Source of the DNA: a phage
Assembly (NCBI GenBank): GCA_020619395.1
Contig: GCA_020619395.1_4860.1
DNA: 64,000 bases
Strand: one strand, 5' to 3'
A program made the translations under genes and the position numbers. Positions 6,301-37,860 of this stretch are shown here, one piece after another (the first letter of the stretch is position 1; each line of letters starts with the position of its first letter). The notes beneath the pieces are model-generated. The model was not told the DNA's origin and searched no databases. It saw only the letters and a program-made list of their open reading frames with translations.

Positions 6301-8521
6301 TTTGGCAATTGAAGTTGAGTTTGATCCGAACACCACTTACTCAGGTAAGGCGGGGTATGGCCCAACTAACAATCGTCGTGTAGTAGATTCTATCACGTAT
6401 GAGAATCTGTCGCAGATGTGCCACATTGTTACACCGGCGTCGCCTGGTACAGAGTTAAACGGCTGGTATTGCACAGGACCAGAAACATTCCCTTATCACA
6501 ACGTTTCTGGCACTTTCACGATTCATGCCGATCGGTTGACGCTGTCACAAGCCGAATGGGATAAGATGAAGCAGATGATCATCGACGGTGCACCGGCTGG
6601 CGCTGCGAATGGTTATGCTTCGGAATTTATCCTTGCCGCAAATAACGCAGGAAAGGCATTGTTCTCCGTTTGGTTCATCGGCATTGGTACGGCCACACCG
6701 CTCACGTTAGCACAAGTAGCATGTACGCGTACTGTGAACAACGTTAACGTGTTGGATATCTACTACTTTACACTGAAACCAACAATCAGCAACGGGCAGG
6801 TAACATTCCCCGCAGCGATATTGGCTTTGTTTGACTTCTATAACAACCTCGACTATGGCTTGAACTATGCTACGTTGGGTGAGATAACGGGAGGAAAAAC
6901 ACGCCGGCCGGGACAACCTACACTGGTGTCGGTAGATGGTACTCGGTTCGGGTTGTATCTTCCACACACGTTAACCTTGCGCCTGATTGGCGACTTGGGT
7001 GCGCTTAACTACGCTGTTGGTCTTACGCTGTCTAATGGTACTTGGACGCGTTCTTCTGCTCCACACGGCGTTGGACGTATGGCACCGGCACACACTCCAG
7101 TCAGTCCAGCTTATCTGGCCCATCGCGATCAAGTGATGCTACACAACTCATCTCTCGACTACGTCTACTGTGGTGGTATCGCAACGTCGTCGAGTGATTT
7201 TGTCGCGGCTCCTAATTTTAGTGGCCCGACTGAATCGGTTGTCATTGCTGGTGTGGAAACAGCTGAAGGTTGGCTGGTATATGTGACTGAGGAAGTTGAC
7301 CTGCGTTTCGGCTCGAGCACTTATAAGCTGCCTACGTGGTATATTGACCTCAGCGCAGCATTTCCAACAAACCATCAGAACCGGACATTCTACCTGCACG
7401 CCAAGGTAGAAAATGGTACACCGAAGTACGTAATGGACGTGATTCAACATCCAGACACTGAAACGGAACTCTATATCGGGTATGTTAAAACGGGCTCGTC
7501 GCGAGTCGTCGAGACTAACGTCGAACATGCTAAGCGATTAGGGGCGGTGAAACAACTGTTGGAACATGCGGCGGTTGAGAATAAGCATGATGTGGAGGTG
7601 GGAAGGGATGCAGCAACGGGCAGACTGGCACCATTGCGTAAAGAAGCGATGGGTCCTTTGTCGATCGATGCTACGAAAGGCTATCTGGATAGTCAGTTGC
7701 TTTATACCGTATCCGACGCACAGCGTCGCGGTAAAGCGATGGTGTCCAAACGTTTCGAAGGCTTGAAAACTTTGCCGGCGTTTACTCAGGCAAACAAGTC
7801 GGGGGCGTTTTGGAAACATCCTACAACAATTGCGACGGTAACGGCCGATGAGAACAGTGAAGCGACATCGTTGGGTATGGAGTGGGTAGGTATTCCAACG
7901 CCCGCTTTCGCTCCGACCTCAACAAACCTGATGGTGGTGGTGCAAAGTAAATTCGTCGTCCCAGGTACACCGGGAGTAGAAACGACCTTTAATGTCCACG
8001 TTGCCCCATGGGAGGCGGTGGATGGCTTTTTCTACAACGTCGAGGCGGAAGGTACGGATGTTAACATTGATGAAAATCCAGAAGTGTTATTGCCGTCACC
8101 ACATACCGTGCACCACAAACAGCACTCTCTGCCAGCAGGCGTGCCGTGTACCTTTACATTTGTCGCGGCGGTAAGTTCTTCAGCGCTCGAAACAGCTAAC
8201 CAGCATATTTGCTCTTGGCTTTTCACTGACGCTGGGGGACTACCAATCACCACCGATCTTTCGGATAGTAAGATTCAAATCTTACCACAGCCGGGAGAGA
8301 CCAACGGCACACCAGTTGTTCTGAACAGTCGTAGCTACACGTTTACGAATGTGACAGGTGCAATCCCGGTTGTTACCACGGGCGCTCAGGGTTTATTCCC
8401 ACCACCGATCGTGGCGTGGGATGGCGATGATCTTACGTTAACGATTGCGCACGATTGGGTGAACGAGAGGGGACGTCAACAGCCTGATGTTATCCAGGTC
8501 AATCTTATGTTCCGTACCTAA
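3338..8521 (+). CDS. Very large tail fibre protein (1727 aa)
   Basis: Start moved to ATG 3338 (AGGAG 8 nt upstream) from tracked 3293. TTHTHTIADL..SVTGLAKLW motif shared with upstream gene. Confidence 0.7.
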   Translation: MPREDAAQFNGTLSTATYPNRYSTVIPVEAPFYRIGLTLTVTDKTTGTKRKLIEGLDYFLGHYFQELAEAENDAIYGSIMLLNATEVEYELLSVGRQYRIPASEIGKYLVKTDMKDPRNCDWSELMKYPPIISPIDPPKDLEEAILRDEIVKALEDIRLGILERAHELDEAFAEVTDLIYQNGKQVFDDEMYQHHLIKNAHGYTCGDIGALPVLGKAVDATKAFGRTLAELVTLMSTSGIQQKHVDMLLDNTLGDLLGRMRVLNNDAITFQTTSGHVISMKGEKFIITSTKPLVLKADQDNNEPGIATEFSAGLNTLWVHSGKAGDKWGAYDAGVLAPVYNSVYLVTPDMVKMYLTSVKILPANAYFKSSDTLKIYGSGKETNKVYMNAELPAATTTVQGLFAITNLSASAAASTAISQKAVTDLKNKLDGYVDDTYTVNGKGFVLDSNGQMHLTLTAADFGIEKMNNTGPLEKPVTNALRTVLSGKALTTHTHTIADLDNVPYASTSVTGLAKLWDAIDTTSDKMVTSRQGFLLEQKIDTLNDKIATLLPAWTVGGSSYGNNNFLPIPVQGNYEGYTKNQTWQKGLARYESGKVYSLRNGSNGNPPGDWAIYYAYADVSPSNTLENMQQTSVRYRPAGMSAYPGVNLVAIVITGTDAMICLGSDGAYYLVIFDGTIDHAKHHRVVKVVLGDYKNGNGAGTVTTAPWAPNASTDDLIVCNERVYLLRTVLTSGDYFVSMRSIALNELNPGGSNTFVADALTGGILTSGENVYLRQGQKRAASDALPAPVTQIYADALAKWNNAINFVHGPECNHAIGVDGLKFRVGLTPTVWFASSTGQTINFKQWTSSFVVDCSALTVTLEGADRFPIVADLTTVRYNSGAEIGIPSRKWGEGQANNKTFATSQDKYIVSQGHAGDRDLMPYVTITTLDDGVSWYEYLSCDYNFTARSFSAVMLNQGRGSIYELGMAYPLTLGANSRLIWLSQPRSRLAIEVEFDPNTTYSGKAGYGPTNNRRVVDSITYENLSQMCHIVTPASPGTELNGWYCTGPETFPYHNVSGTFTIHADRLTLSQAEWDKMKQMIIDGAPAGAANGYASEFILAANNAGKALFSVWFIGIGTATPLTLAQVACTRTVNNVNVLDIYYFTLKPTISNGQVTFPAAILALFDFYNNLDYGLNYATLGEITGGKTRRPGQPTLVSVDGTRFGLYLPHTLTLRLIGDLGALNYAVGLTLSNGTWTRSSAPHGVGRMAPAHTPVSPAYLAHRDQVMLHNSSLDYVYCGGIATSSSDFVAAPNFSGPTESVVIAGVETAEGWLVYVTEEVDLRFGSSTYKLPTWYIDLSAAFPTNHQNRTFYLHAKVENGTPKYVMDVIQHPDTETELYIGYVKTGSSRVVETNVEHAKRLGAVKQLLEHAAVENKHDVEVGRDAATGRLAPLRKEAMGPLSIDATKGYLDSQLLYTVSDAQRRGKAMVSKRFEGLKTLPAFTQANKSGAFWKHPTTIATVTADENSEATSLGMEWVGIPTPAFAPTSTNLMVVVQSKFVVPGTPGVETTFNVHVAPWEAVDGFFYNVEAEGTDVNIDENPEVLLPSPHTVHHKQHSLPAGVPCTFTFVAAVSSSALETANQHICSWLFTDAGGLPITTDLSDSKIQILPQPGETNGTPVVLNSRSYTFTNVTGAIPVVTTGAQGLFPPPIVAWDGDDLTLTIAHDWVNERGRQQPDVIQVNLMFRT

Positions 8522-8568
8522 CAGATAGCGCTATGGGGCAAGGAAGCCCCAATCAAAGGAGTTTGGCA

Positions 8569-9771
8569 ATGGCCGAAATCATTTATCAGTACCCGCTTGA
8601 CCTTACCGGGACATTAACGTCGAACGCCGTTACACGGCGTATTACGTTAGGTTCTGGTAAAGTTAACCGGGCTTTTGCTTTTCCTGACGGAGCTTTCTAC
8701 GCGGATACCTTCCGCTTGGCAGCTGCGAATAAACCAGGTGTCTACCCGTACAAACGCGGCACAGACTACGAACTGATTTTTGCACATACTGCATATCAGA
8801 AAATGACCAAGAACCGCGAAGTGGTCATGGGTGTGGTGGTAACTAACTCGGCCATTCCTACTGATATCGAAGTCTCTGCGCAAGTCGTTGGTGGTTTTCA
8901 GTCCGCGAACGTCGAAGGTATCCGACAAGCGATTGCGTCGCTGAAAATTGAAGACCGTGTGGTGGACTTCAAGGATCTTCGAAACGTACCTGATACGTTC
9001 CCATCCGCCCCGACGTATAAAGACCTTGGCGATATCTACGGTTTTGAGTATATCATTACCGTACTCGCTGGGATTAAAGATGCGATTAACTCCGGCTCTG
9101 CAGTACAGCTGGAAGAAATCAAAGGTATTCTGGACGGTCTGAAAAACGACTTCCTCGATGCCTTAAATGCCCACATCAACGCCGAAGGTAACGTACACAA
9201 TCTCGACATTCATCAGGTTAATGGCCTGACGGAGACGGAGATTCGTGCTCTGATTCAAAGTGTACAGACTGCCATTGACGCCACTATCAAAGATATCGGC
9301 GACTTAAGAGCAGCAGACACGGCGTTGGGGCAACGCATCGATGCAATTGTGGCTTCGTTAGCCGCGTGGAACGACCAGCTTAATGTAGTTGCTCAAAATT
9401 ACCAGAAAATGTCGTTAGCATTAGCTAACCTTAATTCTCTGGTGTTGCAATTACAGAAGATGGTTAACGATCTTCAGTCTGCACTGAATGAAACAAATCA
9501 GCGCGTCACGGATCTTGAGAATCAGGGCAAAGACTTCCAACAGCAAATTGATAACCTGCAAGGACAAATCAACAGTCTTAAAACTCAGGTTATAAACAAC
9601 ACCAACGCAATTTCGCAGGCAAACCAGAATCTGGCGAACCATGCGGCTGCGGATAACCCACACCCGAATTACCTCCATAAACAGTATGGCGGTGTTGTGC
9701 AGGCTGCTGTTCACGTCAACAACAGCCTCACCTCGCGCGACGATGTTCAAGCTGAAGCGGGTACTAAGTAA
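8569..9771 (+). CDS. Fibre-associated protein with C-terminal coiled coil
   Basis: ATG 8569 with AAGGAG upstream (tracked start 8533). C-terminal heptad-like region LQKMVNDLQSALNETNQRVTDLENQGKDFQQQIDNLQGQINSLKTQ. Confidence 0.6.
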   Translation: MAEIIYQYPLDLTGTLTSNAVTRRITLGSGKVNRAFAFPDGAFYADTFRLAAANKPGVYPYKRGTDYELIFAHTAYQKMTKNREVVMGVVVTNSAIPTDIEVSAQVVGGFQSANVEGIRQAIASLKIEDRVVDFKDLRNVPDTFPSAPTYKDLGDIYGFEYIITVLAGIKDAINSGSAVQLEEIKGILDGLKNDFLDALNAHINAEGNVHNLDIHQVNGLTETEIRALIQSVQTAIDATIKDIGDLRAADTALGQRIDAIVASLAAWNDQLNVVAQNYQKMSLALANLNSLVLQLQKMVNDLQSALNETNQRVTDLENQGKDFQQQIDNLQGQINSLKTQVINNTNAISQANQNLANHAAADNPHPNYLHKQYGGVVQAAVHVNNSLTSRDDVQAEAGTK

Positions 9772-9784
9772 CTTGTTTACGAGC

Positions 9785-9820
9785 CGGACTATGTTTATGG
9801 ACATAGTCCGCTCGTTCTAC
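9785..9820 (+). promoter_or_regulatory. Hairpin between fibre gene and first Cys-repeat peptide gene (attenuator or terminator-like)
   Basis: CGGACTATGT/ACATAGTCCG 10-bp stem, loop TTATGG, followed by CTCGTTCTACTTTTT. Confidence 0.35.
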
Positions 9821-9836: not shown

Positions 9837-10229
9837 ATGGCGATATCTATTAAAGACGTCAGAAACCGCGTCCAGATAGTCGAAGCTAACATGGCGACAG
9901 GCCCCCGCATCGAGGCGCAAGTGGCCTCTAAAGCCCATAATGCAGCAGACCGATTTGGGGGTTGGACGAAAGCACAGCTAGATTGCGGCGGGACATGTTC
10001 TTGGACGTGCTCTAACGGTTGCTCGCATGGCTGTTCGAGCTGTTCAGGAAGCTGTTCTGCTTCTTGTATCGGTAGCTGTTCTTCGACGTGTGGCGGTAAC
10101 TGTTCTGGTTGCTCTGGTTGTTCTGGTGGTTGCAGTAGTAGCTGTACCGGTAACTGTTCAGGTGGTTGCGGCGGCTCTTGTTCCGCAAACTGCTCCGGGG
10201 CCTGCTCCGGCGGCTGTTCAGGTCGCTAA
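9837..10229 (+). CDS. Cys-repeat peptide 1 (130 aa): leader plus core with 21 Cys mostly at 4-residue spacing
   Basis: RBS AAGGAAG 5 nt before ATG. Leader MAISIKDVRNRVQIVEAN.., core CSWTCSNGCSHGCSSCSGSC... Candidate radical-SAM substrate. Confidence 0.6.
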   Translation: MAISIKDVRNRVQIVEANMATGPRIEAQVASKAHNAADRFGGWTKAQLDCGGTCSWTCSNGCSHGCSSCSGSCSASCIGSCSSTCGGNCSGCSGCSGGCSSSCTGNCSGGCGGSCSANCSGACSGGCSGR

Positions 10230-10625
10230 GGGGGATTAAATGGCAATTGGATTAAAAGAACTGAATAACCGATTAAACGCGATCGATGCAAACGCTTTAA
10301 AGAACACCACGAATGTGCAAAACTACATTCGCAATAAAGCTACGAATAACGCCGACTTGTTCGCAGGTCAAGGCCGTTCGCACTATGACTGTGGTGGCAC
10401 ATGCTCTTTTAGTTGCTCGAGTTGTTCTGGCGGGTGTACTGGGTCTGCTACGGGCGGTTGTGGGTCGACTTGTTCCGCAAACTGTGTATCGGGCTGTAGC
10501 AGTAGCTGTACGGGCTGTAGCTCTTCGTGCTCGGGTGGTTGTAGCGGAACGTGTACTGGTAACTGTTCTGGGGGTTGTGGTAAATCCTGCTCCGCAAACT
10601 GCTCCGGCGCGTGTTCTGGTGGTTG
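10000..10625 (+). repeat. Low-complexity codon repeats (TGC-TCN-GGN-GGN) within the Cys-repeat peptide genes
   Basis: Reiterated tgctctggttgctctggttgttctggtggttgc-type strings encoding C-S-G-G-C repeats; coding, not an array. Confidence 0.6.
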
Positions 10626-10641
10626 TTCAGGTCCTAACTGA
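10240..10641 (+). CDS. Cys-repeat peptide 2 (133 aa), paralog of peptide 1
   Basis: RBS GGGGGA before ATG. Leader MAIGLKELNNRLNAIDAN.., 20 Cys, CSANCSGACSGGCSG tail shared with peptide 1. Confidence 0.6.
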   Translation: MAIGLKELNNRLNAIDANALKNTTNVQNYIRNKATNNADLFAGQGRSHYDCGGTCSFSCSSCSGGCTGSATGGCGSTCSANCVSGCSSSCTGCSSSCSGGCSGTCTGNCSGGCGKSCSANCSGACSGGCSGPN

Positions 10642-10652
10642 CGGAGGCTTAT

Positions 10653-10859
10653 GTGATCAGTCTCAAGACTATTCGAAACCGTCTCGTTACGGTAGAAGGT
10701 TACATTACAACCGCACAGGCAAACAACTATATCGCTAACCAGGGCACCGTGTCGACCACAAATAACCTGGCTGGCTTACCGCTTTCTCACTATAACTGTA
10801 ATGGTGGGTGTAGCTGGTCCTGCAGCGGAAGCTGTAGCCGTGGAGCGGGGAATCGATAA
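10653..10859 (+). CDS. Cys-repeat peptide 3 (68 aa), short paralog
   Basis: GTG start with GGAGG 5 nt upstream. Homologous leader ISLKTIRNRLVTVE.., core CNGGCSWSCSGSCS (4 Cys). Confidence 0.45.
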   Translation: MISLKTIRNRLVTVEGYITTAQANNYIANQGTVSTTNNLAGLPLSHYNCNGGCSWSCSGSCSRGAGNR

Positions 10860-10881: not shown

Positions 10882-11769
10882 ATGAAAAACGATTTGCATC
10901 TTGCGTATAAAACCACATTCAACCACCCGCTGCATCTATCTTCCCCAGATTCAGTGCGTGCGCACCTTGCTGACAAAGTCAGACTGATTGCACAGATTCC
11001 TGGTGAGTGGCCAAAGGTTCGTGGTCGCTTCTTGACCGACAAGAAGAACTACACCGTAGAAAATACGTTTAAGATCCGTGATATGGTTGCAGAGGCCATC
11101 GTTATCTTTAACGGCGATGGTAACTCTCGTGGCGTGTTAGTCGACGGTAAGTATTTCTTCAGTGAAGGGATTTTGAACAACAGCGTCGATTTAGAACTGA
11201 TGTTTACACCGTTTGACGAACTTGAAGCAAAACCGATGGCGCGCCGTTGGTGGAGTCCGGACTATCTGGGCTCGTTCCCTTACTACTTTGTACTGGTACC
11301 TGCCGATACGGAAACGTATTTCGACACCGAACCGTACATCGATATCGAGGGATATAAAGAACTCGGCATCACCCGTTTAGCGGACATGATGGCGTATAGC
11401 TATAAGTTCGTGTGGGATAAAAAGCGTTCTGTCTGGTATGCGTTGACTGACGATTTTGAAATCACCAAACGTATTCGTAAGCCGTGGATGCAACACCTGG
11501 TTCAAACCCGATATGGGGATTACCCGGCGACAGAAGCGGATTTGAGTAAGCTGGTAAGCTTCCTCTTAACGAAGGTGGATTTAACGAAAGAAGAAGCAGA
11601 AGCTGTTTCTGAGATTCGTAGTCGTTCGGTAACGTTGGCCGATTTGAAACGCTTGAACGAAAGACACGCCGACCTGAACAAAATTTTAGCTGCCTATCAC
11701 GACCCGATGTTACTGGTGCCTGGCGCTAATGTAGACGAAGATCCTTTATTCGCCATTGATTATATTTAA
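10882..11769 (+). CDS. Hypothetical protein in Cys-peptide/rSAM cluster (295 aa)
   Basis: ATG with GGAG upstream. No recognisable motif; co-oriented and tightly spaced with the rSAM genes. Confidence 0.6.
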   Translation: MKNDLHLAYKTTFNHPLHLSSPDSVRAHLADKVRLIAQIPGEWPKVRGRFLTDKKNYTVENTFKIRDMVAEAIVIFNGDGNSRGVLVDGKYFFSEGILNNSVDLELMFTPFDELEAKPMARRWWSPDYLGSFPYYFVLVPADTETYFDTEPYIDIEGYKELGITRLADMMAYSYKFVWDKKRSVWYALTDDFEITKRIRKPWMQHLVQTRYGDYPATEADLSKLVSFLLTKVDLTKEEAEAVSEIRSRSVTLADLKRLNERHADLNKILAAYHDPMLLVPGANVDEDPLFAIDYI

Positions 11770-11791
11770 AAATATACTGGAGCAACCTGCA

Positions 11792-12706
11792 ATGACAGAT
11801 CAAGTAGAATCCAGGATCTCGTCTGAACTGTACGACAAACCGTCAATTCTGTCGGTTGTCGCAACTTCTAAGTGTAACTTAGACTGTAGCTTCTGTGGAG
11901 GGGCTTATTACATGGATAGAGAAGATACTTCTCGTGAGTTTCAACGCGAAGAGATTCTCTCGATTTTAGAGAAGAATCCGGATATCGGTGAGATTCATTG
12001 GACGGGCGGTGAGCCGCTGTTAGCGCAGCGTAAGATTGAAGACTTCGTGAACGAGTTGAAGGAGTCTCATCCGAACCTCCGTCATCACATGTACACCAAC
12101 GGTTTAAAGATGCGTAAATCACATCTGCCGTTGCTGAAACAGTTCGACCTTATCTTTGTGTCCATTGACGGCTACAAGAAGTCGGAACGTCCGTTTATGA
12201 ACTTTGTAAACGGTGGTAATCACGAAGCGCTGGAAGTGCTGTACGAGCTGGACAACTATTACACCTGGGGTGTGATGACGCGTGACCAGTTAGGTGATAA
12301 ACGCTGGTACGAAGATTTCATCGAGCTGCACCGAGCAATCTATCATTACCGTCCAGGTGGTGTGTCGTTGTTGTTTGATGCGATGATGCCGAAACCGTTA
12401 TCGCCAGACCACGTCATGAACTTCATGTACGGGTATTGGAAAATACTCGACAATATCGAACGCCTTAACATGCAGAACGATTCTGAATGTGGGCTCGCGA
12501 TCAGTAAAATGTTCGATACCGAGTGCAACACGTGCAGTGAAGTGCTGTGGCTTAACGCCGACGGTACGCAGGAGCAAATTCAGAACGCCCCAGAGATATT
12601 GGAAGTCGGCTGTAATCGCCTGGCGCGTTCTATCGGCGTTGATGCGTATAACTACATCAACCGTGTAATTTCTGCTAAGCGTAAACGGGCGGCGAACAAT
12701 GAGTAA
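11792..12706 (+). CDS. Radical SAM enzyme (304 aa)
   Basis: CNLDCSFCGG CxxxCxxC motif near N-terminus; additional C-terminal Cys cluster (ECNTCSE..VGC). Start moved to ATG 11792 (tracked 11756). Confidence 0.75.
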   Translation: MTDQVESRISSELYDKPSILSVVATSKCNLDCSFCGGAYYMDREDTSREFQREEILSILEKNPDIGEIHWTGGEPLLAQRKIEDFVNELKESHPNLRHHMYTNGLKMRKSHLPLLKQFDLIFVSIDGYKKSERPFMNFVNGGNHEALEVLYELDNYYTWGVMTRDQLGDKRWYEDFIELHRAIYHYRPGGVSLLFDAMMPKPLSPDHVMNFMYGYWKILDNIERLNMQNDSECGLAISKMFDTECNTCSEVLWLNADGTQEQIQNAPEILEVGCNRLARSIGVDAYNYINRVISAKRKRAANNE

Positions 12707-14027
12707 TAGCGAACAGCAAATCCAGTACACACCACGCACGTATCAGGTTGTGACTAACCTGTCATGTAACCTGGACTGCGAATACTGCTACGAGCGTAAA
12801 TATCCGCGTAACAACAAAGTAGCAGACGTGATTGATTTTATCCACGCTTGTTTCGAGCGCGATAAAGATATCCCGAACGTTGAAGTCATCATCGATATCA
12901 TCGGTGGTGAGCCGTTCATGCAGCCTAAACTTCTTTTGGCGGCCTTTGAAACCGCAGAGAAGTTATGCGCAGAACACAATCGCCCGTATATGTTCAGTAT
13001 CTCCACGAACGGTACGCTTCTGGACCGTCCGCTGAACAAAGAAATTATCGAGCGCTGGAAAGACAAACTGTCTATTGGGGTCTCCATCGATGGTTTACCT
13101 GAAGTCCATGACAAATATCGTATCTTTACCACGACGCGTGAAGGGTCGTACGAAGCTGCGGTACGCGGTTACAATTATCTGAAGAGTGTTGGCATCGCTG
13201 AACTGGGCGTAAAAGCGACGTTTACGATCGATACATTGCCGCACTATGCCGCCAGCATGAAATCGTTAATTGACATGTCCGGCGGTGGTACCATTTCTGG
13301 TAATGTAACGTACGAAGATATCCTGCCGCGCCATATGGCGTTGGATATCGCGAACCAGATGATGGACGTGATGGACTACTGGATTGAGAAGGGTCTGCAC
13401 ACCAACCCGCGTAACACGATTACACACATCATCCCGGATGGCCTGAACTTTATGGCAACTTGGGACCCGGATTGGCGTGACAAACTCTTACACGACGACT
13501 CTGTTCGTCTCGACCCAGAACGCCTGAAACCGTACTGCGGTACGTTGACGCACATGACCTGTCTCGGCTTTGATCGCAAGATTTACGGTTGTAACCGTTT
13601 CATGTCCACGGTAACTTCCCGCTCTGCTGTAGCGGAACTGGTCGGTCGTGAGTTTGTGAGTCTGGACGGTGGTAAGCTGTTAGAAGAGATTCAAACGCAG
13701 TACACCAACTACCCAGAAACCTGTTTAGGGTGTCCGATGAAACACAGCTGCGGTAGCTGCGCAGCGGCATCGTACGAAAACGGTGAAGGTACACTGGAAG
13801 ACCGTAAAGCGTATCACGCCGAGCGTCGTCAGTGTGGTTGGACTACTGCGAAGCTGATGGCGGCGGAATATTGGTATCAGAAAACTGGTACGACTCGCGC
13901 ATCAGATTTGCACGATAAATCCATGTGCTATTGTTCACGTTGTGTACGCCAACGTGCCGAAGCAGAAAAATTACAAAACGGAGCCCAGAATGAAGTCAAT
14001 ACTGATTCACAATTTTACGAAGCGTAA
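12699..14027 (+). CDS. Radical SAM enzyme with SPASM/twitch-like C-terminal Cys-rich domain (442 aa)
   Basis: CNLDCEYCYERK CxxxCxxC motif; C-terminal CLGCPMKHSCGSCAAAS..CGW..CYCSRC cluster typical of auxiliary Fe-S domains. Confidence 0.75.
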   Translation: MSNSEQQIQYTPRTYQVVTNLSCNLDCEYCYERKYPRNNKVADVIDFIHACFERDKDIPNVEVIIDIIGGEPFMQPKLLLAAFETAEKLCAEHNRPYMFSISTNGTLLDRPLNKEIIERWKDKLSIGVSIDGLPEVHDKYRIFTTTREGSYEAAVRGYNYLKSVGIAELGVKATFTIDTLPHYAASMKSLIDMSGGGTISGNVTYEDILPRHMALDIANQMMDVMDYWIEKGLHTNPRNTITHIIPDGLNFMATWDPDWRDKLLHDDSVRLDPERLKPYCGTLTHMTCLGFDRKIYGCNRFMSTVTSRSAVAELVGREFVSLDGGKLLEEIQTQYTNYPETCLGCPMKHSCGSCAAASYENGEGTLEDRKAYHAERRQCGWTTAKLMAAEYWYQKTGTTRASDLHDKSMCYCSRCVRQRAEAEKLQNGAQNEVNTDSQFYEA

Positions 14028-14556
14028 ACTGCACTTGGTCGATCGCTTCCTGCGCAAAAGCAAGCTGTACAATGTGCACGCAATTGTGGCAGGGGAAGAC
14101 TTCACTGATGAAATCCAAAGCCTGTTGATTAAATACGGGCTGAATGTGATGATCCCGGTCTACTGCGTTGAGAAAGGACACGAGTCTGTCGCGGAAATCG
14201 AAAAGCGCAACCCTGGCTTTGAGAAGCGACTGCTTGCATACCCACGCCACAAAATCGAACTGCTACGTCACTCTATTGATGAAGCCAGTCCTGAAAGTTT
14301 AGTGGCATTGGGCTTGTCATTCCCGCGGATGCGTATTCGTAACTTACGCTCCAATAACCCGGTTGACGCTTATTACACAGAACGTCAAATCTTCGAAGAA
14401 CACCTGCTCCCGCAGTTGGAAGAAGAAGAGCAACACAACATTTCTCTGTTGTGGGCCGGTAACCTCGATCAGGACTTCCAGATGCTGGACTTCGGTTTGT
14501 TGTTAGAACTTGGCCTGATTGAGGAGGACGAATGTCTGTTACTGACAAAAGCTTAA
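13990..14556 (+). CDS. Hypothetical protein, cluster member (188 aa)
   Basis: ATG 13990 with GGAG upstream (tracked start 13942 overlaps the rSAM gene). No assignable domain. Confidence 0.5.
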   Translation: MKSILIHNFTKRKLHLVDRFLRKSKLYNVHAIVAGEDFTDEIQSLLIKYGLNVMIPVYCVEKGHESVAEIEKRNPGFEKRLLAYPRHKIELLRHSIDEASPESLVALGLSFPRMRIRNLRSNNPVDAYYTERQIFEEHLLPQLEEEEQHNISLLWAGNLDQDFQMLDFGLLLELGLIEEDECLLLTKA

Positions 14557-15203
14557 CGAACGAAGAGATCCGCGCCCGTTATTTCCAGCGTGATTTGCCG
14601 ATTGATCGTCACGGTAATTTCATGGAACGAATCGGTGCGCAGGATCAGGGTCGTACCGGATTTTGTGCATTACTCCATTACCATCTCATCGAAGGGATGT
14701 CTGATAAAGAAGCCCTGGCACGCATGAAGCTGTATGAGATGTCGGAGATTGAAGCTAACTTCACATTGAAACGCACGAAAGAGTTTATTGCTAATGTGCT
14801 GGAGATTGACCTCGACGAAATTCGCGGGAATCTGAAATCTACCGCACGTTACATTTACGAAGACGTGCAGAAGATGCTGTTGGAACTCGACCACCGCTAC
14901 GAAGATGAGCGCCATGGTTATATCGAGTTTGAAGGTAGTCACTTTCAAGCCGATGAATCGTCGCGCACCATCCTCGGTCAATACATTCAGGCAGATACCG
15001 CACCAGAATACTGGCTCGATACGCTGAATACTAAGCACAGTCCGTTTACAGTAGCCCAATGTAAAGCGTTGCTGGCCGCTATTGTTGCACGTGACCAAGT
15101 GTTGCACTCAGCAATGGCAGATAACAAACGCCAAATCCGTGAGTTAGCTGAAAAGCGCGATTACACTGGATTAAAAACATTGTCCGAGTCACTCGGCATG
15201 TAA
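14532..15203 (+). CDS. Hypothetical protein, last gene of cluster (223 aa)
   Basis: GAGGAGG 4 nt before ATG; 25-nt overlap with upstream gene suggests coupling. Confidence 0.6.
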   Translation: MSVTDKSLTNEEIRARYFQRDLPIDRHGNFMERIGAQDQGRTGFCALLHYHLIEGMSDKEALARMKLYEMSEIEANFTLKRTKEFIANVLEIDLDEIRGNLKSTARYIYEDVQKMLLELDHRYEDERHGYIEFEGSHFQADESSRTILGQYIQADTAPEYWLDTLNTKHSPFTVAQCKALLAAIVARDQVLHSAMADNKRQIRELAEKRDYTGLKTLSESLGM

Positions 15204-15217
15204 GCAAAGAAAATAAA

Positions 15218-15258
15218 GGCCCTACCTCCCCGAAGGGAGGTAGGTACCTTTTATTTAT
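15218..15258. terminator. Bidirectional rho-independent terminator at convergent junction
   Basis: CCTACCTCCC-CGAA-GGGAGGTAGG hairpin flanked by A-run (left) and TTTTATTTATTT (right). Confidence 0.75.
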
Positions 15259-22393: not shown

Positions 22394-23296
22394 TTAGCTA
22401 AGAACCAGTTCGATAACGTGGACTACCGACGCGCTATTGGTCGAAGAGGTGTACGATGGTGTGTCTGGTGAGTTGCTGCGATAGTACCAGGGGGTGGCGT
22501 TGTCATAACCGTTGGCAAACAATGTTGCGCTTGAATCGGTTGGACTACCGCCGGAGCGCGCCGGTAAGTCGCCAAAACGTCTTACGACGCCCGCGTAGCG
22601 GAACAAGCTTGCGAACGTGTTGTGCCACTCGCCATCTTGAAAATAACCACCGCTGCTTAGGTAGGTGCTGTGCCCATAACTGTAGTCTCCGAGTCGAGGC
22701 AAACGTACCACATACTCGTAACCGTCTTTATTAAATGTCCGACGCTGGTTAGTGGTAGCGACGCCCCGTGGCGGGAAACCGTAGTCATCTGTTCCCCAGG
22801 CCAGACCTTGCTGGTATTGTTCGTTCCACGTCGTCCCTAAACGGGTCACCGTGTCAGGAATGAACAGAATGCGTCCTTTGAAAACGAATTTATGGAACAA
22901 TGTTGGAGCTTGGTTCCAGGCATTAAAGCCAATTAAACCATTCAGCTCGGCATGGTTAAGAATAAATTCTTCGTTTGTCAGTGTGCCAAAGTAGCCACGA
23001 TGCCAATCGCCACGAATAAGTTCCTGTGGGCCGGGCCCTGTCATTGGAAAGTCGCCCTGTACAATCGGCAGCCCCATAACCTTTTCAGTGCCCTTTACCG
23101 CCACGATGCGATATTGATACGTTTTATACGCCTCGGTGGTCGTGTCCTCGTACGTCGTTGTGTTACCTGGTAGTGTTACAATAGGTTCCCCCGGTGCTAC
23201 TGGGTTAACACTTTGTCTGGGGTTGTCGTAACGATAGATTTCAATGGAATCTAAAGTCTGACCTGGCTGTTGTTTCCAGTTTAAGATAATCGACAT
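22394..23296 (-). CDS. Fibre-module paralog type A, triad 3 (300 aa)
   Basis: FN3-like N-terminus (TTYEDTTTEAYKTYQYRIVAV) and central GPGPQELIRGDWHRGYFG..ELF..HKFVFKGRILF domain. Confidence 0.7.
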   Translation of the reverse strand: MSIILNWKQQPGQTLDSIEIYRYDNPRQSVNPVAPGEPIVTLPGNTTTYEDTTTEAYKTYQYRIVAVKGTEKVMGLPIVQGDFPMTGPGPQELIRGDWHRGYFGTLTNEEFILNHAELNGLIGFNAWNQAPTLFHKFVFKGRILFIPDTVTRLGTTWNEQYQQGLAWGTDDYGFPPRGVATTNQRRTFNKDGYEYVVRLPRLGDYSYGHSTYLSSGGYFQDGEWHNTFASLFRYAGVVRRFGDLPARSGGSPTDSSATLFANGYDNATPWYYRSNSPDTPSYTSSTNSASVVHVIELVLS

Positions 23297-23299
23297 GTT

Positions 23300-24298
23300 T
23301 TACTCCACTAACTCGATAACGAATGCGTACAAACCGACCTTCTCAGCACTGTCAATTAACGTAACTTGGGAGAGGTTACGTTTCGACGTATTGGTTATGC
23401 TTGAATCGATAGGCGCAGACCCGCGAACCAGAACTAATCCCGATTCAGGATCACGTTCTTGGCACAAGAAACCTTTGCCTTGGTAAGCGCTACCGCTCCC
23501 ATAAATGGACGCTGGACTAATATTAGTCCAGTTAGGGAGCATTTGTTTGTTAGGGATACAATCTCCGAACGGATAAACAAAATCGTTATATTCGCAGCGA
23601 CCATATTCCAAGTCATCATGGTCTGCGTTTCGCAACGATTCATCCAATGTCATTACTGTCGGTTCGTCCCCGTCGGTTAAACCGCGCAGCAATCGCATCC
23701 GATAGGTGTCGCCTTGCCATTCAAACAACCCACTCTGGTCAACACCTGCCAAATCCCCACGTCCGTTATCAGGACCAAATCCATCAACACCGTACACAAG
23801 CCCCGCGTTATAAATGTCATTCCACGAGTAAAGTGTAGAGTTAAATCGTCCGCCGCTGTTCATCATGTAGTAAACTTTACCATGTCGATAAAACTTGTTC
23901 ATGATTAGCGTGCCCGTGCCCGATATCCCTGTTAATGCACGAAAGCCTGCAGGCAACGCGTCATAGGTCATCTGTTCTTCGAACGGCAACTGCCCCAGAA
24001 ACGCCAAGTCGTCAGTATCGGAATAGTTAATCTGGTCGACGCCACCCACACCACGACGGTTTTTAATGACAATGGATTTTTGTGGACTACCTACGGTACG
24101 GCCGTTAACAGTTACTGTTAAAAGATACCAGTAACGGGTGTTAAGAATAACGGTTTCGTCCGTCCATTCCGTTTCGCCATTACTTAAAGTTGCAATAGGG
24201 GCTGGTAATGCGGCTGTATTTATTTTAGCCGTGCCCCGATAAATGTTAACAATTGAACCTGCCGGATTTTCATTTTTCCAGCGTAGTGTGAATGCCAT
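23300..24298 (-). CDS. Fibre-module paralog type B, triad 3 (332 aa)
   Basis: MAFTLRWKNENPAGSIVNIYRG.. N-terminus; AAGGAG RBS; 3-nt gap to A gene. Confidence 0.7.
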   Translation of the reverse strand: MAFTLRWKNENPAGSIVNIYRGTAKINTAALPAPIATLSNGETEWTDETVILNTRYWYLLTVTVNGRTVGSPQKSIVIKNRRGVGGVDQINYSDTDDLAFLGQLPFEEQMTYDALPAGFRALTGISGTGTLIMNKFYRHGKVYYMMNSGGRFNSTLYSWNDIYNAGLVYGVDGFGPDNGRGDLAGVDQSGLFEWQGDTYRMRLLRGLTDGDEPTVMTLDESLRNADHDDLEYGRCEYNDFVYPFGDCIPNKQMLPNWTNISPASIYGSGSAYQGKGFLCQERDPESGLVLVRGSAPIDSSITNTSKRNLSQVTLIDSAEKVGLYAFVIELVE

Positions 24299-24308
24299 CT
24301 GTTACTCC

Positions 24309-25751
24309 TTAGAAGCCGTTCAACTCACCGTTCGCGGTTGCTAAATCTGTTTTAAGTGGAGGTTCTGCCTGAGTAGGCGGTAGTGGACGCGGTGCGTCGA
24401 CGTGTGGTTCAAGTACAACCATCGGCCTAACTGTACCTACGCTGTTCGACACTGTCGATAACGGCAGCGCAGTATCGACGTTTGGTTCACCCACCACAAT
24501 CGGGCTGATAGGTTCTTCCACCTGTTCCGCAGTTGTTGCTAGAGGTCTCGGCGCATCTGTTGTCGCAACCTCGACTGCAAGAGGGCGAATGCTATCAGGT
24601 TGTGGTGATGGTACATTAGGAATAACCCTAACGCGCCACACAACATCCCCTTCCACATCAGCTAAAGATAAGACGATGTCGTCCTTATTGATTTCCTCTA
24701 AAACAGGCCACCAGTAAGTGGTATCTGTAAGGGTTACCCATTCAACTGAGCCACCGCGCATATTGCAACGTTGTACTTTAACAGGGTTACCCCCGGTTAA
24801 CAGTTGTTGCGTGAAGAAGACGGTGGTTCTGGTTAACGTGGTGTCATTTGCCCAGTCGCCGCCCGTAGAACCGTCACCGAGTTGTGAAATAAGCCACAAC
24901 GGTGTGGCCTTTGATAAATCAGGGCTAACCGGAACGGAGACGCGGTAATAATGCGTCTTGTTATTCTCAGTTTTCGTGACAATCAAAGCCTGGTCAACAG
25001 GTTCGATACCGTCTGGATACGGACCAGTGTCACCTGTACCGAAAATGGCACCCGCTTGATAAAGGGCCGTCCAGGTTGCTGTTAACGTTCCGGTAGTCGG
25101 TAGATAAACAATCTTACCATCCTTGAAAAATTTCAACCATTCGAAAGTCATTTTCGTTGGGGCAACATCAGGACGAATTAGGTTGTTTAGTTCAGCAAAG
25201 GTAAATAACTCTTGCTGAGAAACGTGGCCGAAGTATCCGTTTGTGCTGTCCCCTGCCAACAAATATTTATTGCCTGGCCCAGAATCTGGATAGTAGCCCA
25301 CGGCTTCATTCAAATAATCGACCGGGATATAGCCGCGATAGCATACGCTATTATACGCGGTTAAATTAATACGTGTTGGCGTTGCCAGCGATTTGATAGG
25401 CGCGTCTACCGACTGTACACTGCTATCAGATAACCAAACACCGTATAAATCGCGTAGAGCTGGGAGAAGATCCCGCACGGTCTTGGCCGTTTGTGGTACG
25501 TAGACGCGCGGAGCTATTTTAAATAGATCTGATAATGTTAAACGGTCGTAATAAACCGTGCACTCCCCAGAGAAACCTTTACCGGGTTTACCTACCAACG
25601 TAATTACCGTGTTACGACCATTCTTAGTGGTCTCGGCAGGAATACCCCTCACCCCAATCGAATCAGCGCTGATTCTTCCTGCGAGTTCAGGGTTATCCCT
25701 TACGACTTGTTGGCAGAGCAATTCCAGTTCGGGTGCGCTATACAATCCCAT
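24309..25751 (-). CDS. Fibre-module paralog type C, triad 3 (480 aa)
   Basis: N-terminal family module (VRDNPELAG..GRNTVITLVGKPGKGF..VYYDRLTLSDLF), central GPG..GYFG..ELF domain, DAPRPL repeats, C-terminal TANGELNGF. Confidence 0.7.
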   Translation of the reverse strand: MGLYSAPELELLCQQVVRDNPELAGRISADSIGVRGIPAETTKNGRNTVITLVGKPGKGFSGECTVYYDRLTLSDLFKIAPRVYVPQTAKTVRDLLPALRDLYGVWLSDSSVQSVDAPIKSLATPTRINLTAYNSVCYRGYIPVDYLNEAVGYYPDSGPGNKYLLAGDSTNGYFGHVSQQELFTFAELNNLIRPDVAPTKMTFEWLKFFKDGKIVYLPTTGTLTATWTALYQAGAIFGTGDTGPYPDGIEPVDQALIVTKTENNKTHYYRVSVPVSPDLSKATPLWLISQLGDGSTGGDWANDTTLTRTTVFFTQQLLTGGNPVKVQRCNMRGGSVEWVTLTDTTYWWPVLEEINKDDIVLSLADVEGDVVWRVRVIPNVPSPQPDSIRPLAVEVATTDAPRPLATTAEQVEEPISPIVVGEPNVDTALPLSTVSNSVGTVRPMVVLEPHVDAPRPLPPTQAEPPLKTDLATANGELNGF

Positions 25752-25762
25752 GAAGTCTCCTG

Positions 25763-26662
25763 TTAAGGCAGAACGAGTTCAAGTACCGCAATGGAGCGTA
25801 TTGTAGTGGTACCGTAGTTACTCCATGCCGGCGACTCAGGGTAAGGTGGACGGTTGTACCACTGACTGGACGTGTTATTCATAGCCGCAAAGAATGCAGA
25901 TTGTTGGGCAGTAACCGAATCGATTGAACCGACCGGAAGGTCGTCAAAGCGCGGAAACTGCCCACTGTAGTTGTACAGGCGCGCGAAGGTGTTAAACCAC
26001 TCACCGTCGAGATACAACTCAGTGTTACCGCTTCCAACGTAAGACGTCCAGTATTTGTAGTCGAACAAATACGGCAAGCGCACCACGTATTCGTAACCGT
26101 TCTTCGCCACCGTGCGGCGTTGGTTACGTGCAGTAGCCCAGCCCGGTACATATCCATTGCCATCCTGGCCGTACATCATCCCCTGGTTATAAATGAACTG
26201 CGGGCTAGCGTTTATTATCGAGTTATCGGACATAAACAGAATACGGTTTTTGTAAATGAATTTATGCCAGGCACCAACGGCGGAACTGAACATATTCACC
26301 ACGAGGCCGTTCAGTTCCGTGTTAGTGAATAACTCTGCTGGCGTTACTGTTCCAAAGTATCCAGCGTGCCAGTCGCCGTATAACAGTTTCTGGGGGCCAG
26401 GCCCGGTGTCTAAAAAGAACCCTTGGGCGGTAGGGGTGTTGAAGACACGCTCACCGTCTTTAACCGCAGCTATCCAATAACGGTAAGTGGTGTTGTTTTC
26501 CACAGCGTTGTCTTCGTACGATGTAGCGTCACCCGGAAGGGTTGCCAGAGGCGTTCCCGGTGCATTAACATCAATTGTGGCGTTGCCCGGCGTCTTGCGA
26601 TAGATTTCGATGTTATCGAGCGCCTGTGGCTTCCGTTGTGCAAAGTGTAATGTAATAGGCAT
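25763..26662 (-). CDS. Fibre-module paralog type A, triad 2 (299 aa)
   Basis: Start set to ATG 26662 (MPITLHF..), 2 nt after upstream stop; tracked 26698 start overlaps. About 60% identity to the other A copies in the central domain. Confidence 0.7.
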   Translation of the reverse strand: MPITLHFAQRKPQALDNIEIYRKTPGNATIDVNAPGTPLATLPGDATSYEDNAVENNTTYRYWIAAVKDGERVFNTPTAQGFFLDTGPGPQKLLYGDWHAGYFGTVTPAELFTNTELNGLVVNMFSSAVGAWHKFIYKNRILFMSDNSIINASPQFIYNQGMMYGQDGNGYVPGWATARNQRRTVAKNGYEYVVRLPYLFDYKYWTSYVGSGNTELYLDGEWFNTFARLYNYSGQFPRFDDLPVGSIDSVTAQQSAFFAAMNNTSSQWYNRPPYPESPAWSNYGTTTIRSIAVLELVLP

Positions 26663-26664
26663 GA

Positions 26665-27654
26665 TTAATCCTCGATAAGCTCGATTACTGGAATCCAAAT
26701 ACCGCCCACGGTCGCACCAGGGACATGTTGTATACGCTGGAGGTTATCCACGGTATCAGTGGAATCCGCCGCCGCCAATCCGCGCGTCAGCCCCAACTTA
26801 CGTTCTGGGTCAAACTCCTGACAATGCGCCCCACGGCCTGCCACCAGCGATCCATTTCCGAATATGCTGGAGTTCGACCACTTTATCAGGGACATCACTT
26901 TTTTCTTTTCTGGGAACCAGCTACTTATCCCATAGATGAGTCGGTTGTATTCGCTATCGGCAGTATACGGTGACGCGTCATGGAGTTTACCGTCCCACTG
27001 TGCATCGAGTGTCATGACCGGGCTTTCACTGTCGAGTGTTAAACCGCGCAGCAGGCGCATCCGATAGCGGTCACCCAACCACGTAAACTCCCCAGCCTGG
27101 TCAACGTCAGGTAAATCGCCATGACCGCCTTCCGGACCAGGTCCCGCCACACCGTACAGCAAACCCGCGTTATAAATCGCATCACGGCTATACAGCGTGT
27201 TGCCGTTCACACGAAGACCACTAAACAGATACAGAATTTTACCGTCTAGCTGGAACTTCATCAAGCCCGGCTTAACAGTTGGGTCGTATCCAGAAAGGGC
27301 CACAAACCCTGGCGGATAATCACCCGCGCTAGGTAATTCACCGTACGCCACGTACCCGTAATACGCAAAGCGGTCATCACCGTACTGTGGAGCCACGATG
27401 CCGATACCGCGACGGTTCTGAATTAGAATTGATTTCTGCGGACTGAACAGTGTCCGACTTCCCACTGTCACGGTGGTCATGTAGTAATACGTTGTCCCCA
27501 GTATCGCTGTTCGGTCAGTATACTCAGTTTCCCCGTTAGTGAACGTTGCCAGGGGTTCAGGTAATGCCGTACGCACCAGAGGTTTGGTGTCGCGGTACAG
27601 CTTCACGGTCGAAGCCCCAGGGTTATTGTTCGTCCAACGAATTGTAAAAGCCAT
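26665..27654 (-). CDS. Fibre-module paralog type B, triad 2 (329 aa)
   Basis: MAFTIRWTNNNPGASTVKLYRD.. homologous to the other B copies. Confidence 0.7.
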   Translation of the reverse strand: MAFTIRWTNNNPGASTVKLYRDTKPLVRTALPEPLATFTNGETEYTDRTAILGTTYYYMTTVTVGSRTLFSPQKSILIQNRRGIGIVAPQYGDDRFAYYGYVAYGELPSAGDYPPGFVALSGYDPTVKPGLMKFQLDGKILYLFSGLRVNGNTLYSRDAIYNAGLLYGVAGPGPEGGHGDLPDVDQAGEFTWLGDRYRMRLLRGLTLDSESPVMTLDAQWDGKLHDASPYTADSEYNRLIYGISSWFPEKKKVMSLIKWSNSSIFGNGSLVAGRGAHCQEFDPERKLGLTRGLAAADSTDTVDNLQRIQHVPGATVGGIWIPVIELIED

Positions 27655-27666
27655 TGTCGTTACCTC

Positions 27667-29163: not shown

Positions 29164-29176
29164 GGTATTTACTCCA

Positions 29177-30100: not shown

Positions 30101-30109
30101 GACTGCCCC

Positions 30110-31108: not shown

Positions 31109-31119
31109 AGATGATACCT

Positions 31120-32532: not shown

Positions 32533-32545
32533 AGGGACTCCGCAT

Positions 32546-32576
32546 CGCCAAAAGAGGGGGGCTCCGAAGAGCCCCT
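32546..32576 (-). terminator. Hairpin terminator between short-paralog genes and triad 1
   Basis: Minus-strand GGGGCTC-TTCG-GAGCCCC followed by CCTCTTTTGG. Confidence 0.45.
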
Positions 32577-32580
32577 ACAC

Positions 32581-33408: not shown

Positions 33409-33411
33409 CAA

Positions 33412-34299: not shown

Positions 34300-34309
34300 T
34301 CGCTAATTC

Positions 34310-35149: not shown

Positions 35150-35167
35150 AATAGCCTCCTCGGCCAA

Positions 35168-35206
35168 AAAAGAAAGGAGTAGCCAGGAGGAGGATTTCCT
35201 CCTCCC
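35168..35206 (-). terminator. Hairpin terminator-like element
   Basis: GGAGGAGG-ATTT-CCTCCTCC stem-loop; U-run begins 9 nt downstream on minus strand. Confidence 0.35.
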
Positions 35207-35218
35207 AGCGAGGCCTAA

Positions 35219-36130: not shown

Positions 36131-36151
36131 TCTTACTTCCTTTACTCAGGA

Positions 36152-36997: not shown

Positions 36998-37007
36998 GTC
37001 AAAATCC

Positions 37008-37850: not shown

Positions 37851-37860
37851 CTATACCCTC

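Follow-up and report, generated by a model that had tools for sequence, protein, structure and literature searches.

Cysteine-repeat paralogs beside two radical-SAM enzymes in an SPN3US-like jumbo phage are candidate cross-linked tail-fibre components

Three small paralogous genes, here called A, B, and C, lie side by side on the plus strand of a 64,000-nucleotide (nt) stretch of phage DNA (GenBank assembly GCA_020619395.1, contig GCA_020619395.1_4860.1), hereafter the window. The region is 98 to 99% identical to SPN3US-like jumbo Salmonella/Escherichia phages (genus Seoulvirus), and the locus falls in the tail part of the phage genome. Paralog A (9837-10229) encodes 130 amino acids (aa), a 49-aa N-terminal part followed by an 81-aa core of CXXX repeats (Cys plus any three residues) with 21 Cys. 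Paralog B (10240-10641) encodes 133 aa, divided into 50 and 83 aa and with 20 Cys in the core, while paralog C (10653-10859), which starts with GTG, encodes 68 aa, of which 48 form the N-terminal part and 20 a core with 4 Cys that ends in a conserved GAGNR. Each gene is preceded by a Shine-Dalgarno-like sequence, and the intergenic gaps are 10 to 11 nt. The N-terminal ~49 residues of the three proteins can be aligned (MAIS[IL]K..RNR[LV]...[VI][ED]), and all three match phrog_6085, a phage protein family annotated as "function unknown," over the full length of its profile (A, 7e-40, positions 1 to 127 of 129; B, 2e-41; C, 3e-25, positions 2 to 67). They match no other PHROG family, and a search of a local copy of Pfam assigns them to none. 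The open reading frames (ORFs), the alignable N termini, and the phrog_6085 matches bear out an earlier sequence-only reading of the window, which had placed three paralogous precursors at 9837-10859 and had put their cores at about 20 to 85 residues.

Within the cores, the Cys-to-Cys spacing is four in ~77 to 100% of pairs and otherwise three, except for a single 8-residue gap in B. The residue after Cys is Ser or Thr in ~84% of cases in A and B and Ser in ~74% in C, the second residue after Cys is usually Gly, and Asp and Glu are absent. Three CXXX runs occur in the window, all within A and B and with up to 21 Cys; shuffles of the window produce any such run in 8 of 200 cases and never one with more than 5 Cys, which sets the four-residue periodicity recognized in the sequence-only reading apart from chance. 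No further CXXX locus was found elsewhere in the window. The repetition is at the protein level, not in the DNA, as the Cys codons of A and B together are TGT 28 times and TGC 13 times, all six Ser codons occur, and Tandem Repeats Finder reports for the locus just 2.4 copies of a 24-nt and 2.7 copies of a 9-nt unit, both short and imperfect. The proposal that TGC-TCN-GGN repeat DNA encodes the cores and lets them expand or contract by slippage is therefore not upheld, since the DNA is weakly repetitive and ortholog lengths are fixed (below). The final ~39 codons of A (10108-10224) and B (10517-10633) share 76% DNA identity (CTGNCSGGCG.SCSANCSGACSGGCSG), above that of the rest of the cores, which may reflect gene conversion or a common functional C-terminal segment.

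To follow the genes among relatives, the locus was taken from 14 related genomes of at least four genera. Across Seoulvirus, Erskinevirus, Machinavirus, and Derbicusvirus, the orthologs of A, B, and C measure 127 to 130, 130 to 134, and 68 to 69 aa, respectively, and each of the related genomes carries the full set of three, apart from the short C copy, which the pattern search missed in Caitlin. The Cys columns are almost invariant, all indels are in frame, and start codons and ribosome-binding sites are conserved. By the Nei-Gojobori method, the ratio of nonsynonymous to synonymous substitution (dN/dS) between the window and its orthologs is ~0.04 to 0.2, with dS at or near saturation. As dN/dS is far below 1 at saturated dS, the Cys frame is the coding frame, and A, B, and C are real genes under strong purifying selection. 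In most ortholog comparisons, the core is at least as high in identity as the N-terminal part; with STsAS, for instance, the respective values are 0.99 and 0.71 for A, 0.95 and 0.80 for B, and 1.00 and 0.85 for C. Core length is constant within each lineage yet very different between lineages (5 to 63 Cys among the loci examined). The alignment of orthologs thus does not show the conserved leader and "hypervariable" core that had been expected from the sequence alone.

Public records treat the three genes unevenly. In those of SPN3US (GenBank and RefSeq), one gene is annotated across A/B/C, namely gp166 (ACQ60_gp100), an out-of-frame (+1) Val/Ala/Leu-rich ORF inside B (10313-10738 in the window; 7314-7649 in locus L001), and A and C are unannotated. 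Reverse-strand or fragment ORFs are called here in Huxley, ChrisDB, Caitlin, pEa_SNUABM_29, _4, and _9, and pSal-SNUABM-04, while the Stratton and Lh1B records carry all three paralogs, the Stratton B start being placed too early. Three conserved genes are thus missing or mis-framed in SPN3US and several other records, which renders them invisible to published proteomics. By mass spectrometry, gp161 to gp166 were undetected in SPN3US virions and gp167 to gp173 were detected (PMC5694885, PMC10052503); because the A/B/C ORFs were absent from the search database, these virion proteomes are uninformative for A/B/C. Tryptic sites are nearly absent from the cores, and the N-terminal parts give the tryptic peptides VQIVEANMATGPR, IEAQVASK, and FGGWTK from A and LNAIDANALK, NTTNVQNYIR, and ATNNADLFAGQGR from B.

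The paralogs open an operon of the order A-B-C-295aa-rSAM2-rSAM1-188aa-DUF4376, in which all genes lie on the same strand, gaps are short or genes overlap, and hairpins stand at both ends. The larger of its two radical S-adenosylmethionine (radical-SAM) enzymes, rSAM1 (12699-14027, plus strand, 442 aa), starts 1.8 kb downstream of C and belongs to the radical-SAM/SPASM type. It has the CxxxCxxC motif at residues 23 to 30 (C23/C27/C30) and the seven-Cys SPASM pattern (C280, C288, C298; C342-x2-C345-x5-C351-x2-C354; C379), and these Cys are invariant in a six-sequence alignment with enzymes from T7-like and gut phages. Its best family match is TIGR04115 (3e-36), where its 125.6 bits fall short of the equivalog cutoff of 350. 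PapB is second (1e-32), aligned over nearly the whole protein (residues 22 to 357) and far under the curated cutoff, and TIGR03906 is also matched (4e-15). The closest solved structure is that of CteB (5WGG, 3e-10), in which chain residue 106 pairs with residue 22 of the query. No RRE domain was found at the rSAM1 N terminus or elsewhere in the operon, and so there is no sign of an RRE-recognized leader. Searches of the non-precursor proteins of the operon against Pfam, NCBIfam, and PHROGs likewise detected no leader protease, exporter, or immunity gene and so gave no hint of leader removal or export.

The smaller enzyme, rSAM2 (11792-12706, plus strand, ~304 aa; the frame can also be read from a TTG upstream, at 11756), matches PF04055 (1e-15) and phrog_1802 and combines a CxxxCxxC motif with three invariant, twitch-like C-terminal Cys; its Cys are conserved in 18 of 18 sequences. 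A hidden Markov model (HMM) of rSAM2 matches the N-terminal half of a fused radical-SAM protein in a T7-like phage locus, L016 (5.6e-14), as well as a 472-aa protein of locus L037 and a 262-aa protein of locus L038. Between C and rSAM2 lies a Cys-free accessory protein of 295 aa (10882-11769, plus strand; phrog_8030, SPN3US gp165), which lacks a Pfam domain and whose ~49 homologs all seem to come from related jumbo phages. Its AlphaFold2 (AF2) model is confident (pLDDT 90), and comparison of the model with PDB and BFVD gave no informative match and no recognizable RRE or protease, so that, as modeled, it is a new-fold accessory protein. It is conserved as part of the cassette, and its family HMM matches accessory ORFs in L038 (1e-8) and L016 (1e-5). 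SPN3US gp163 to gp165 are absent from virions, which is consistent with assembly factors.

Relatives were collected by a protein search with B and by a scan of IMG/VR with the rSAM1 alignment, which returned 113 relatives, and 79 of their loci were fetched. A CXXX-repeat ORF is found near the rSAM1 relative in 74 of the 79, in most cases ~1 kb upstream of it and in the same orientation; of the five loci that have none, most are on contigs truncated near the radical-SAM gene. At an E value of 1e-3 or below, 436 family members, counted as representatives at 50% identity clustering, emerged from a profile search of 1.84 billion representatives. In the T7-like podovirus contig L016, T7 tube, nozzle, and core proteins are accompanied by a PF03906 tail-fibre N-domain protein, a collagen-like protein of 118 aa, a CXXX protein, an accessory protein, and a fused radical-SAM protein of 668 aa (11330-13336). 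The latter has two CxxxCxxC motifs and joins an rSAM2-like to an rSAM1-like half, in the same order as in the window; its C-terminal half shares 34% identity with rSAM1 (3e-57). The P2-like locus L038 runs from PAAR, Baseplate_J, and Tail_P2_I through fibre ORFs, CXXX, rSAM2-like, accessory, and rSAM1-like genes to sheath and tube, which puts the cassette in the fibre/chaperone slot of a P2-like tail module. The gut myovirus locus L064 has baseplate hub and wedge genes, a CXXX protein of 370 aa, a radical-SAM gene, and a collagen-like tail fibre, and in a large phage contig the gene for protein P0007 follows that of a fibre-type protein with Laminin_G_3. As the HMM of the 295-aa family matches the accessory ORFs of L038 and L016, a four-part cassette of CXXX protein, accessory protein, small radical-SAM enzyme, and SPASM radical-SAM enzyme is common to three unrelated tail types. 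The CXXX module is encoded within the baseplate/tail-fibre block not only in the window but also in the loci of the T7-like phage, the P2-like phage, and the gut myovirus.

A closer look at the relatives shows that the module is also fused to tail-fibre domains, not in A/B/C themselves but in three other proteins. A 401-aa protein of L038 combines tail-fibre PHROG matches, collagen GXY repeats, and phrog_6085; P0010 (206 aa), which in L016 lies between the T7 tail-fibre N-domain protein and the fused enzyme, joins phrog_5073 (tail fiber) to phrog_6085; and P0082 has phrog_910 (tail collar fiber, 2e-20), phrog_972, and phrog_6085. In addition, the phrog_6085 module of a 568-aa protein of L037 comes after an extended N-terminal region that weakly matches a virion structural protein, and in P0091 (549 aa) the CXXX domain is in mid-chain, preceded by a coiled-coil region and followed by a C-terminal domain of 280 aa. 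The 15 to 30 residues before the core ("N.[AD]..L.G.....Y") move together with it as one module behind tail-fibre-type domains, and the junction "N-x-[AD]-x-x-L-x-G-x5-Y-x | C-x-G-x-C-S-W-x-C-S" is common to A/B and the fusion proteins. A tblastn search with the pre-core segment of the L038 fibre found no match among 50,697 phage genomes; "N.DA.TL.G.....Y" may be a motif common in tail fibres. Two adjacent paralogs in L016 (9632-9988 and 10001-10621) have a common tail-fibre-type N-domain of ~65 aa, followed by collagen GXY repeats in one and CXXX repeats in the other, as if the two kinds of repeat were interchangeable fibre modules.

Other arrangements are also seen. In gut phage locus L044 (9156-14622), and likewise in L050, L066, and L039, the CXXX region is N-terminal and is followed by a ~110-aa domain that begins "DYTELKNAMDNEYRRRG"; such paralogs number three in L044, where small ORFs of ~150 aa come after two of them and an ORF of ~124 aa additionally after one, which gives the locus a multi-cassette look. 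P0066 (1785 aa) has a C-terminal CXXX region of several hundred residues, and P0072 (767 aa) an N-terminal one followed by repeated Ig-like units. Bacterial CXXX proteins P0013 to P0016 have a twin-arginine translocation (Tat) signal (SRREFFKKAAK), and in bacterial locus L099 (833-2587) a genuine TIGR04115 maturase (642.7 bits) is encoded immediately after the CXXX gene, which implies that the bacterial products are modified in the cytoplasm and afterwards exported in a folded or cross-linked state.

Upstream of the paralogs, the window encodes counterparts of known SPN3US virion proteins. A 1075-aa ORF corresponds to gp169, and a 1742-aa ORF to gp168, labeled "baseplate/tail fiber candidate." The ortholog of gp167 (8569-9771, plus strand; an alternative ATG upstream at 8533 is open) is a fibre-like virion protein of 400 aa, in which an N-terminal domain is followed by a long coiled coil and Cys does not occur. 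It is labeled virion structural protein or viral fiber protein and matches phrog_2163 (1e-108) and, more weakly, tail-fibre PHROGs. In purified SPN3US virions, gp167 is fairly abundant and has no head-protein flag (PMC5694885, Supplementary Table 1).

The locus resembles several known systems, each in part. The CXXX-repeat target/maturase system (TIGR04114/TIGR04117, PF27846 tSAM_targ_Cxxx_rpt, and TIGR04115) is bacterial and bioinformatically defined, and we know of no published chemistry for it. As in that system, a long stretch of Cys with a period of four lies beside a SPASM radical-SAM enzyme, and TIGR04115 is the top family of rSAM1. With TIGR04114 (cutoff, 20 bits), A, B, and C score 18.4, 16.4, and 13.7 bits, and with TIGR04117 (cutoff, 50 bits) 13 to 16; P0004, a close relative of A/B/C, passes TIGR04114 (25.6 bits). 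Among phage maturases, that of L018 reaches the TIGR04115 cutoff of 350 bits (382.6), and that of L064 approaches it (309). The bacterial members, however, consist of a target with a Tat signal and a single maturase, whereas the N-terminal part of the phage proteins is of fibre type, without a signal peptide, and their genes lie in tail-fibre modules, and the A/B/C lineage has a second radical-SAM enzyme and the 295-aa accessory protein in addition. As A/B/C and rSAM1 score under the curated cutoffs, they are not assigned to the CXXX target and maturase families; by these scores they form a divergent phage branch.

Three enzyme systems outside this family offer chemical parallels; the nearest in mechanism are PapA/PapB and SCIFF/CteB, and the nearest case of a cross-linked protein that is retained is QhpC/QhpD. 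QhpD is a SPASM radical-SAM enzyme that places several Cys thioether cross-links in QhpC, a retained structural subunit. Here too the cross-linked protein would be kept and not freed as a peptide, and TIGR03906 is among the rSAM1 matches. Unlike A/B/C, QhpC has Asp and Glu as acceptors, lacks a repeat architecture, and is a subunit of a periplasmic enzyme, not a virion protein. The cores of SCIFF peptides have C-x3-C spacing, and CteB joins Cys to the Thr after the next Cys, a geometry that the C-[ST] pattern of the A/B/C cores would permit. CteB, however, has an N-terminal RRE of ~100 aa that rSAM1 is missing, and SCIFF (CteA) is a bacterial housekeeping-type peptide with six Cys in ~45 aa. 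In the freyrasin system, PapB installs serial thioether rings on PapA, which has six CXXXD units (PMC12373016). Both there and here, one SPASM enzyme is paired with reiterated C-x-x-x units that take, or could take, a series of rings, and the PapB model starts at the radical-SAM motif, free of an RRE like rSAM1. PapA, in contrast, is a short leader-plus-core peptide, whereas the cores here have 20 to 21 Cys within conserved proteins and a structural genomic setting. In genomic slot and modular logic, the closest likeness is to the shafts of collagen-like phage tail fibres, as seen from the L016 paralogs and from the L038 chain that holds both kinds of repeat. Collagen-like shafts fold by trimerization without covalent enzymatic stapling, whereas two radical-SAM enzymes always go with the module described here. 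A search of the full texts open to searching found no literature on radical-SAM-modified phage tail-fibre proteins or on this SPN3US locus.

Taken together, we favor the reading, somewhat better than evenly balanced in our judgment, that A, B, and C are structural proteins associated with the tail fibre, in which the two radical-SAM enzymes cross-link the Cys-repeat domain and the N-terminal part is kept. Two lines of argument carry it. First, the SPASM clade of rSAM1 is linked to CXXX ORFs, and PapB, CteB, and QhpD are all Cys-to-carbon cross-linkers, which suggests that rSAM1 cross-links the A/B/C cores. Second, the gene position, the fusions, and the failure to detect a protease or exporter point to fibre components, so that A/B/C are more likely to be enzyme-cross-linked fibre parts than secreted peptides. 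We infer from this that A/B/C are the substrates, that the links are thioethers, and that the products enter the virion and have a rod-like role there.

In such a scheme, each protein would consist of a short helical N-terminal part, the junction motif N-x-[AD]-x-x-L/F-x-G-x5-Y/L-x, and C-terminal C-[ST]-G-x repeats, with the repeat domain unfolded by itself until the neighboring enzymes act on it post-translationally. An AF2 prediction for B from a 7-sequence alignment (pLDDT 43) has helices at residues 5 to 19 and 23 to 34 only and leaves the core unmodeled (pLDDT ~36); giving the core no fold of its own, it would fit a domain that needs modification or assembly, to which we attach low weight. 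The putative cross-linker rSAM1, of the PapB/CteB/CXXX-maturase kind, would act on the A/B/C cores with rSAM2 as its partner, and the 295-aa accessory protein probably helps to hold the substrate. Cys sulfur would most likely be joined to the carbon of a nearby residue in thioether staples; as the cores lack an acidic acceptor, the acceptors would be the Ser/Thr/Gly-rich positions between the Cys. A floppy Gly/Ser/Cys chain could in this way become a covalently laddered, protease-resistant rod or tip. The retained N-terminal part would dock the protein to the fibre or baseplate or let it oligomerize there, and might in addition be what the enzymes recognize, and the stapled rod would serve as collagen-like segments do, replacing or accompanying them.

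Several observations weigh against this scheme. The scores of rSAM1 are far below the TIGR04115 and PapB cutoffs, and its chemistry is accordingly a prediction from homology. PapB requires an acidic acceptor C-terminal to the Cys (PMC12373016), and the A/B/C cores have neither Asp nor Glu. Paralog C has 4 Cys only, so that a "rod" cannot fit it, and the AF2 model of B, of low confidence and built from 7 sequences, carries little weight. The role of rSAM2 in cross-linking is putative, and by structure comparison the 295-aa protein is unlike any known peptide-binding domain. Position in a tail module is suggestive of a structural role without proving it, and the presence of A/B/C in virions is conjectural, the published SPN3US search database having omitted the ORFs.

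Of the other explanations, the one that survives best, while still unlikely, is a classical ribosomally synthesized and post-translationally modified peptide (RiPP), in which a leader of ~50 aa serves the radical-SAM enzymes as a guide before it is cleaved off, and the cross-linked core is released as a bioactive peptide with an antibacterial, anti-defence, or host-manipulating effect. Small two-part ORFs that adjoin a SPASM radical-SAM enzyme are what it predicts, and it is also in keeping with the weak matches to TIGR04114 and TIGR04117, the models for CXXX targets, and with the kinship of rSAM1 to PapB and CteB, both ranthipeptide makers. The helix motif "LK..RNRL" resembles "IKNRLNAEMNRR" and "DY..LK....E..RR" of other phage CXXX proteins and could be a recognition element. 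Yet the protease, transporter, and immunity gene of such a pathway were undetected in the operon, conservation is higher in the core than in the leader and core length is fixed, the reverse of the usual RiPP pattern, and the Cys region is N-terminal or internal in some phages. The module is, moreover, always in tail-fibre blocks and in relatives is fused to fibre domains of 200 to 450 aa. The sequence-only reading had proposed a leader-recognizing enzyme that processes variable cores; an enzyme of the Cys-repeat class, as judged by TIGR04115, PapB, and CteB, does lie just downstream, but the cores are not variable. Nor do leader and core behave as separable units, with pre-core residues that travel with the core and no protease, exporter, or RRE detected. 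Its idea of an enzyme and its substrate is thus probably right and its leader/core RiPP framing probably wrong, and the structural role that it held out as a fallback is the best-supported reading.

Nearly as well placed, and also improbable in our estimation, is a radical-SAM-modified assembly factor or scaffold that is needed for fibre building or attachment and left out of the finished virion, as tail-fibre chaperones are. The L038 cassette occupies the slot where P2-like phages hold fibre and chaperone genes, the neighboring gp161 to gp165 are undetected in SPN3US virions, and the DUF4376 and 188-aa genes are co-conserved, all of which would suit such a factor. The fusion of CXXX into long fibre chains, in mid-chain in P0091, is hard to square with a discarded chaperone, however, and the heavy outlay on covalent modification suggests a durable product.

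We give a smaller chance to the view that these polycysteine proteins bind metal or Fe-S clusters, or are rich in disulfides, without being radical-SAM substrates, and that the enzymes have some other target, such as the fibre, a cofactor, or nucleic acid. Dense and regular thiolates of this kind recall metallothionein or beta-helical Cys ladders, and the Tat signals of the bacterial CXXX proteins are typical of exported proteins loaded with a cofactor. Against this, a CXXX ORF and the SPASM clade occur together in 74 of 79 loci, the bacterial CXXX gene stands directly before its TIGR04115 enzyme (642 bits), and the closest characterized enzymes all cross-link Cys in peptide substrates. The chance of a non-coding or mis-framed low-complexity repeat is negligible, for although SPN3US, Huxley, ChrisDB, pEa_SNUABM_29, and others annotate other frames, the reverse strand, or nothing, the repeat was not found conserved as non-coding, and purifying selection in the Cys frame, saturated dS, conserved starts and ribosome-binding sites, in-frame indels, and PHROG matches of 1e-25 to 1e-41 refute it.

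It is conceivable, if a little short of probable, that polycysteine rods "stapled" by radical-SAM enzymes are in wide use as a tail-fibre element of phages that has escaped recognition. RiPP-type chemistry, in the form of serial Cys thioether cross-links made by a SPASM enzyme, often together with a second radical-SAM enzyme and an accessory protein of new fold, would then have been recruited for covalently laddered shafts or tips among jumbo myoviruses, T7-like podoviruses, P2-like prophages, and gut phages. On the same reading, A, B, and C of the SPN3US group may come together through their N-terminal helices, which are alike, as a heterotrimeric appendage of the gp167 fibre. If cross-linked fibre parts are indeed made here, radical-SAM peptide chemistry would be joined with phage virion architecture, fields so far apart, and a virus would be cross-linking its own structural proteins with RiPP-type enzymes. 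This would give a biological role to the uncharacterized CXXX-repeat target/TIGR04115 family and account for the two conserved radical-SAM genes of SPN3US-like jumbo phages. The 436 representatives, with cores of up to ~60 Cys in the examined loci, would then be a large natural substrate set for thioether enzymes in peptide engineering.

The remaining features of the operon frame it on both sides. Between the fibre gene and paralog A, an RNA hairpin with a U-rich tract (9779-9815, plus strand) is terminator- or attenuator-like, with a minimum free energy of -23.7 kcal/mol (z = -4.5) and an equally good fold in 0 of 200 shuffles; it is not among the calls of a consensus terminator scan. It may be an attenuator that lowers the expression of the downstream maturation operon relative to the abundant fibre gene. 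Behind rSAM1 follow a 188-aa protein (13990-14556, plus strand; phrog_7988, SPN3US gp162), co-conserved in the jumbo-phage operon with a cluster of 17 orthologs, and, as the final gene, a DUF4376 protein (14532-15203, plus strand; SPN3US gp161), which matches PF14301 (1.4e-9), phrog_8169, and, weakly, phrog_2837 ("tail protein"). A bidirectional hairpin like an intrinsic terminator (15221-15244), with a 10-bp stem, 7 GC pairs, and T-runs on both strands, ends the operon.

Farther along, the minus strand of the window has a long tandem row of like-sized ORFs of ~265 to 500 aa (~22394-38658), probably the SPN3US "paralog family B" head proteins gp138 to gp154 named in PMC5694885. Among the related genomes, the region aligns in 13 to 40 pieces in several assemblies of SPFM1, 5, 6, 7, 8, 9, 10, 12, 14, 15, and 20, and SPFM assemblies yield frameshifted protein entries (P0001, P0044, P0046, P0049, P0056, and P0059); the fragmented alignments suggest indel-rich assemblies and not true variation.

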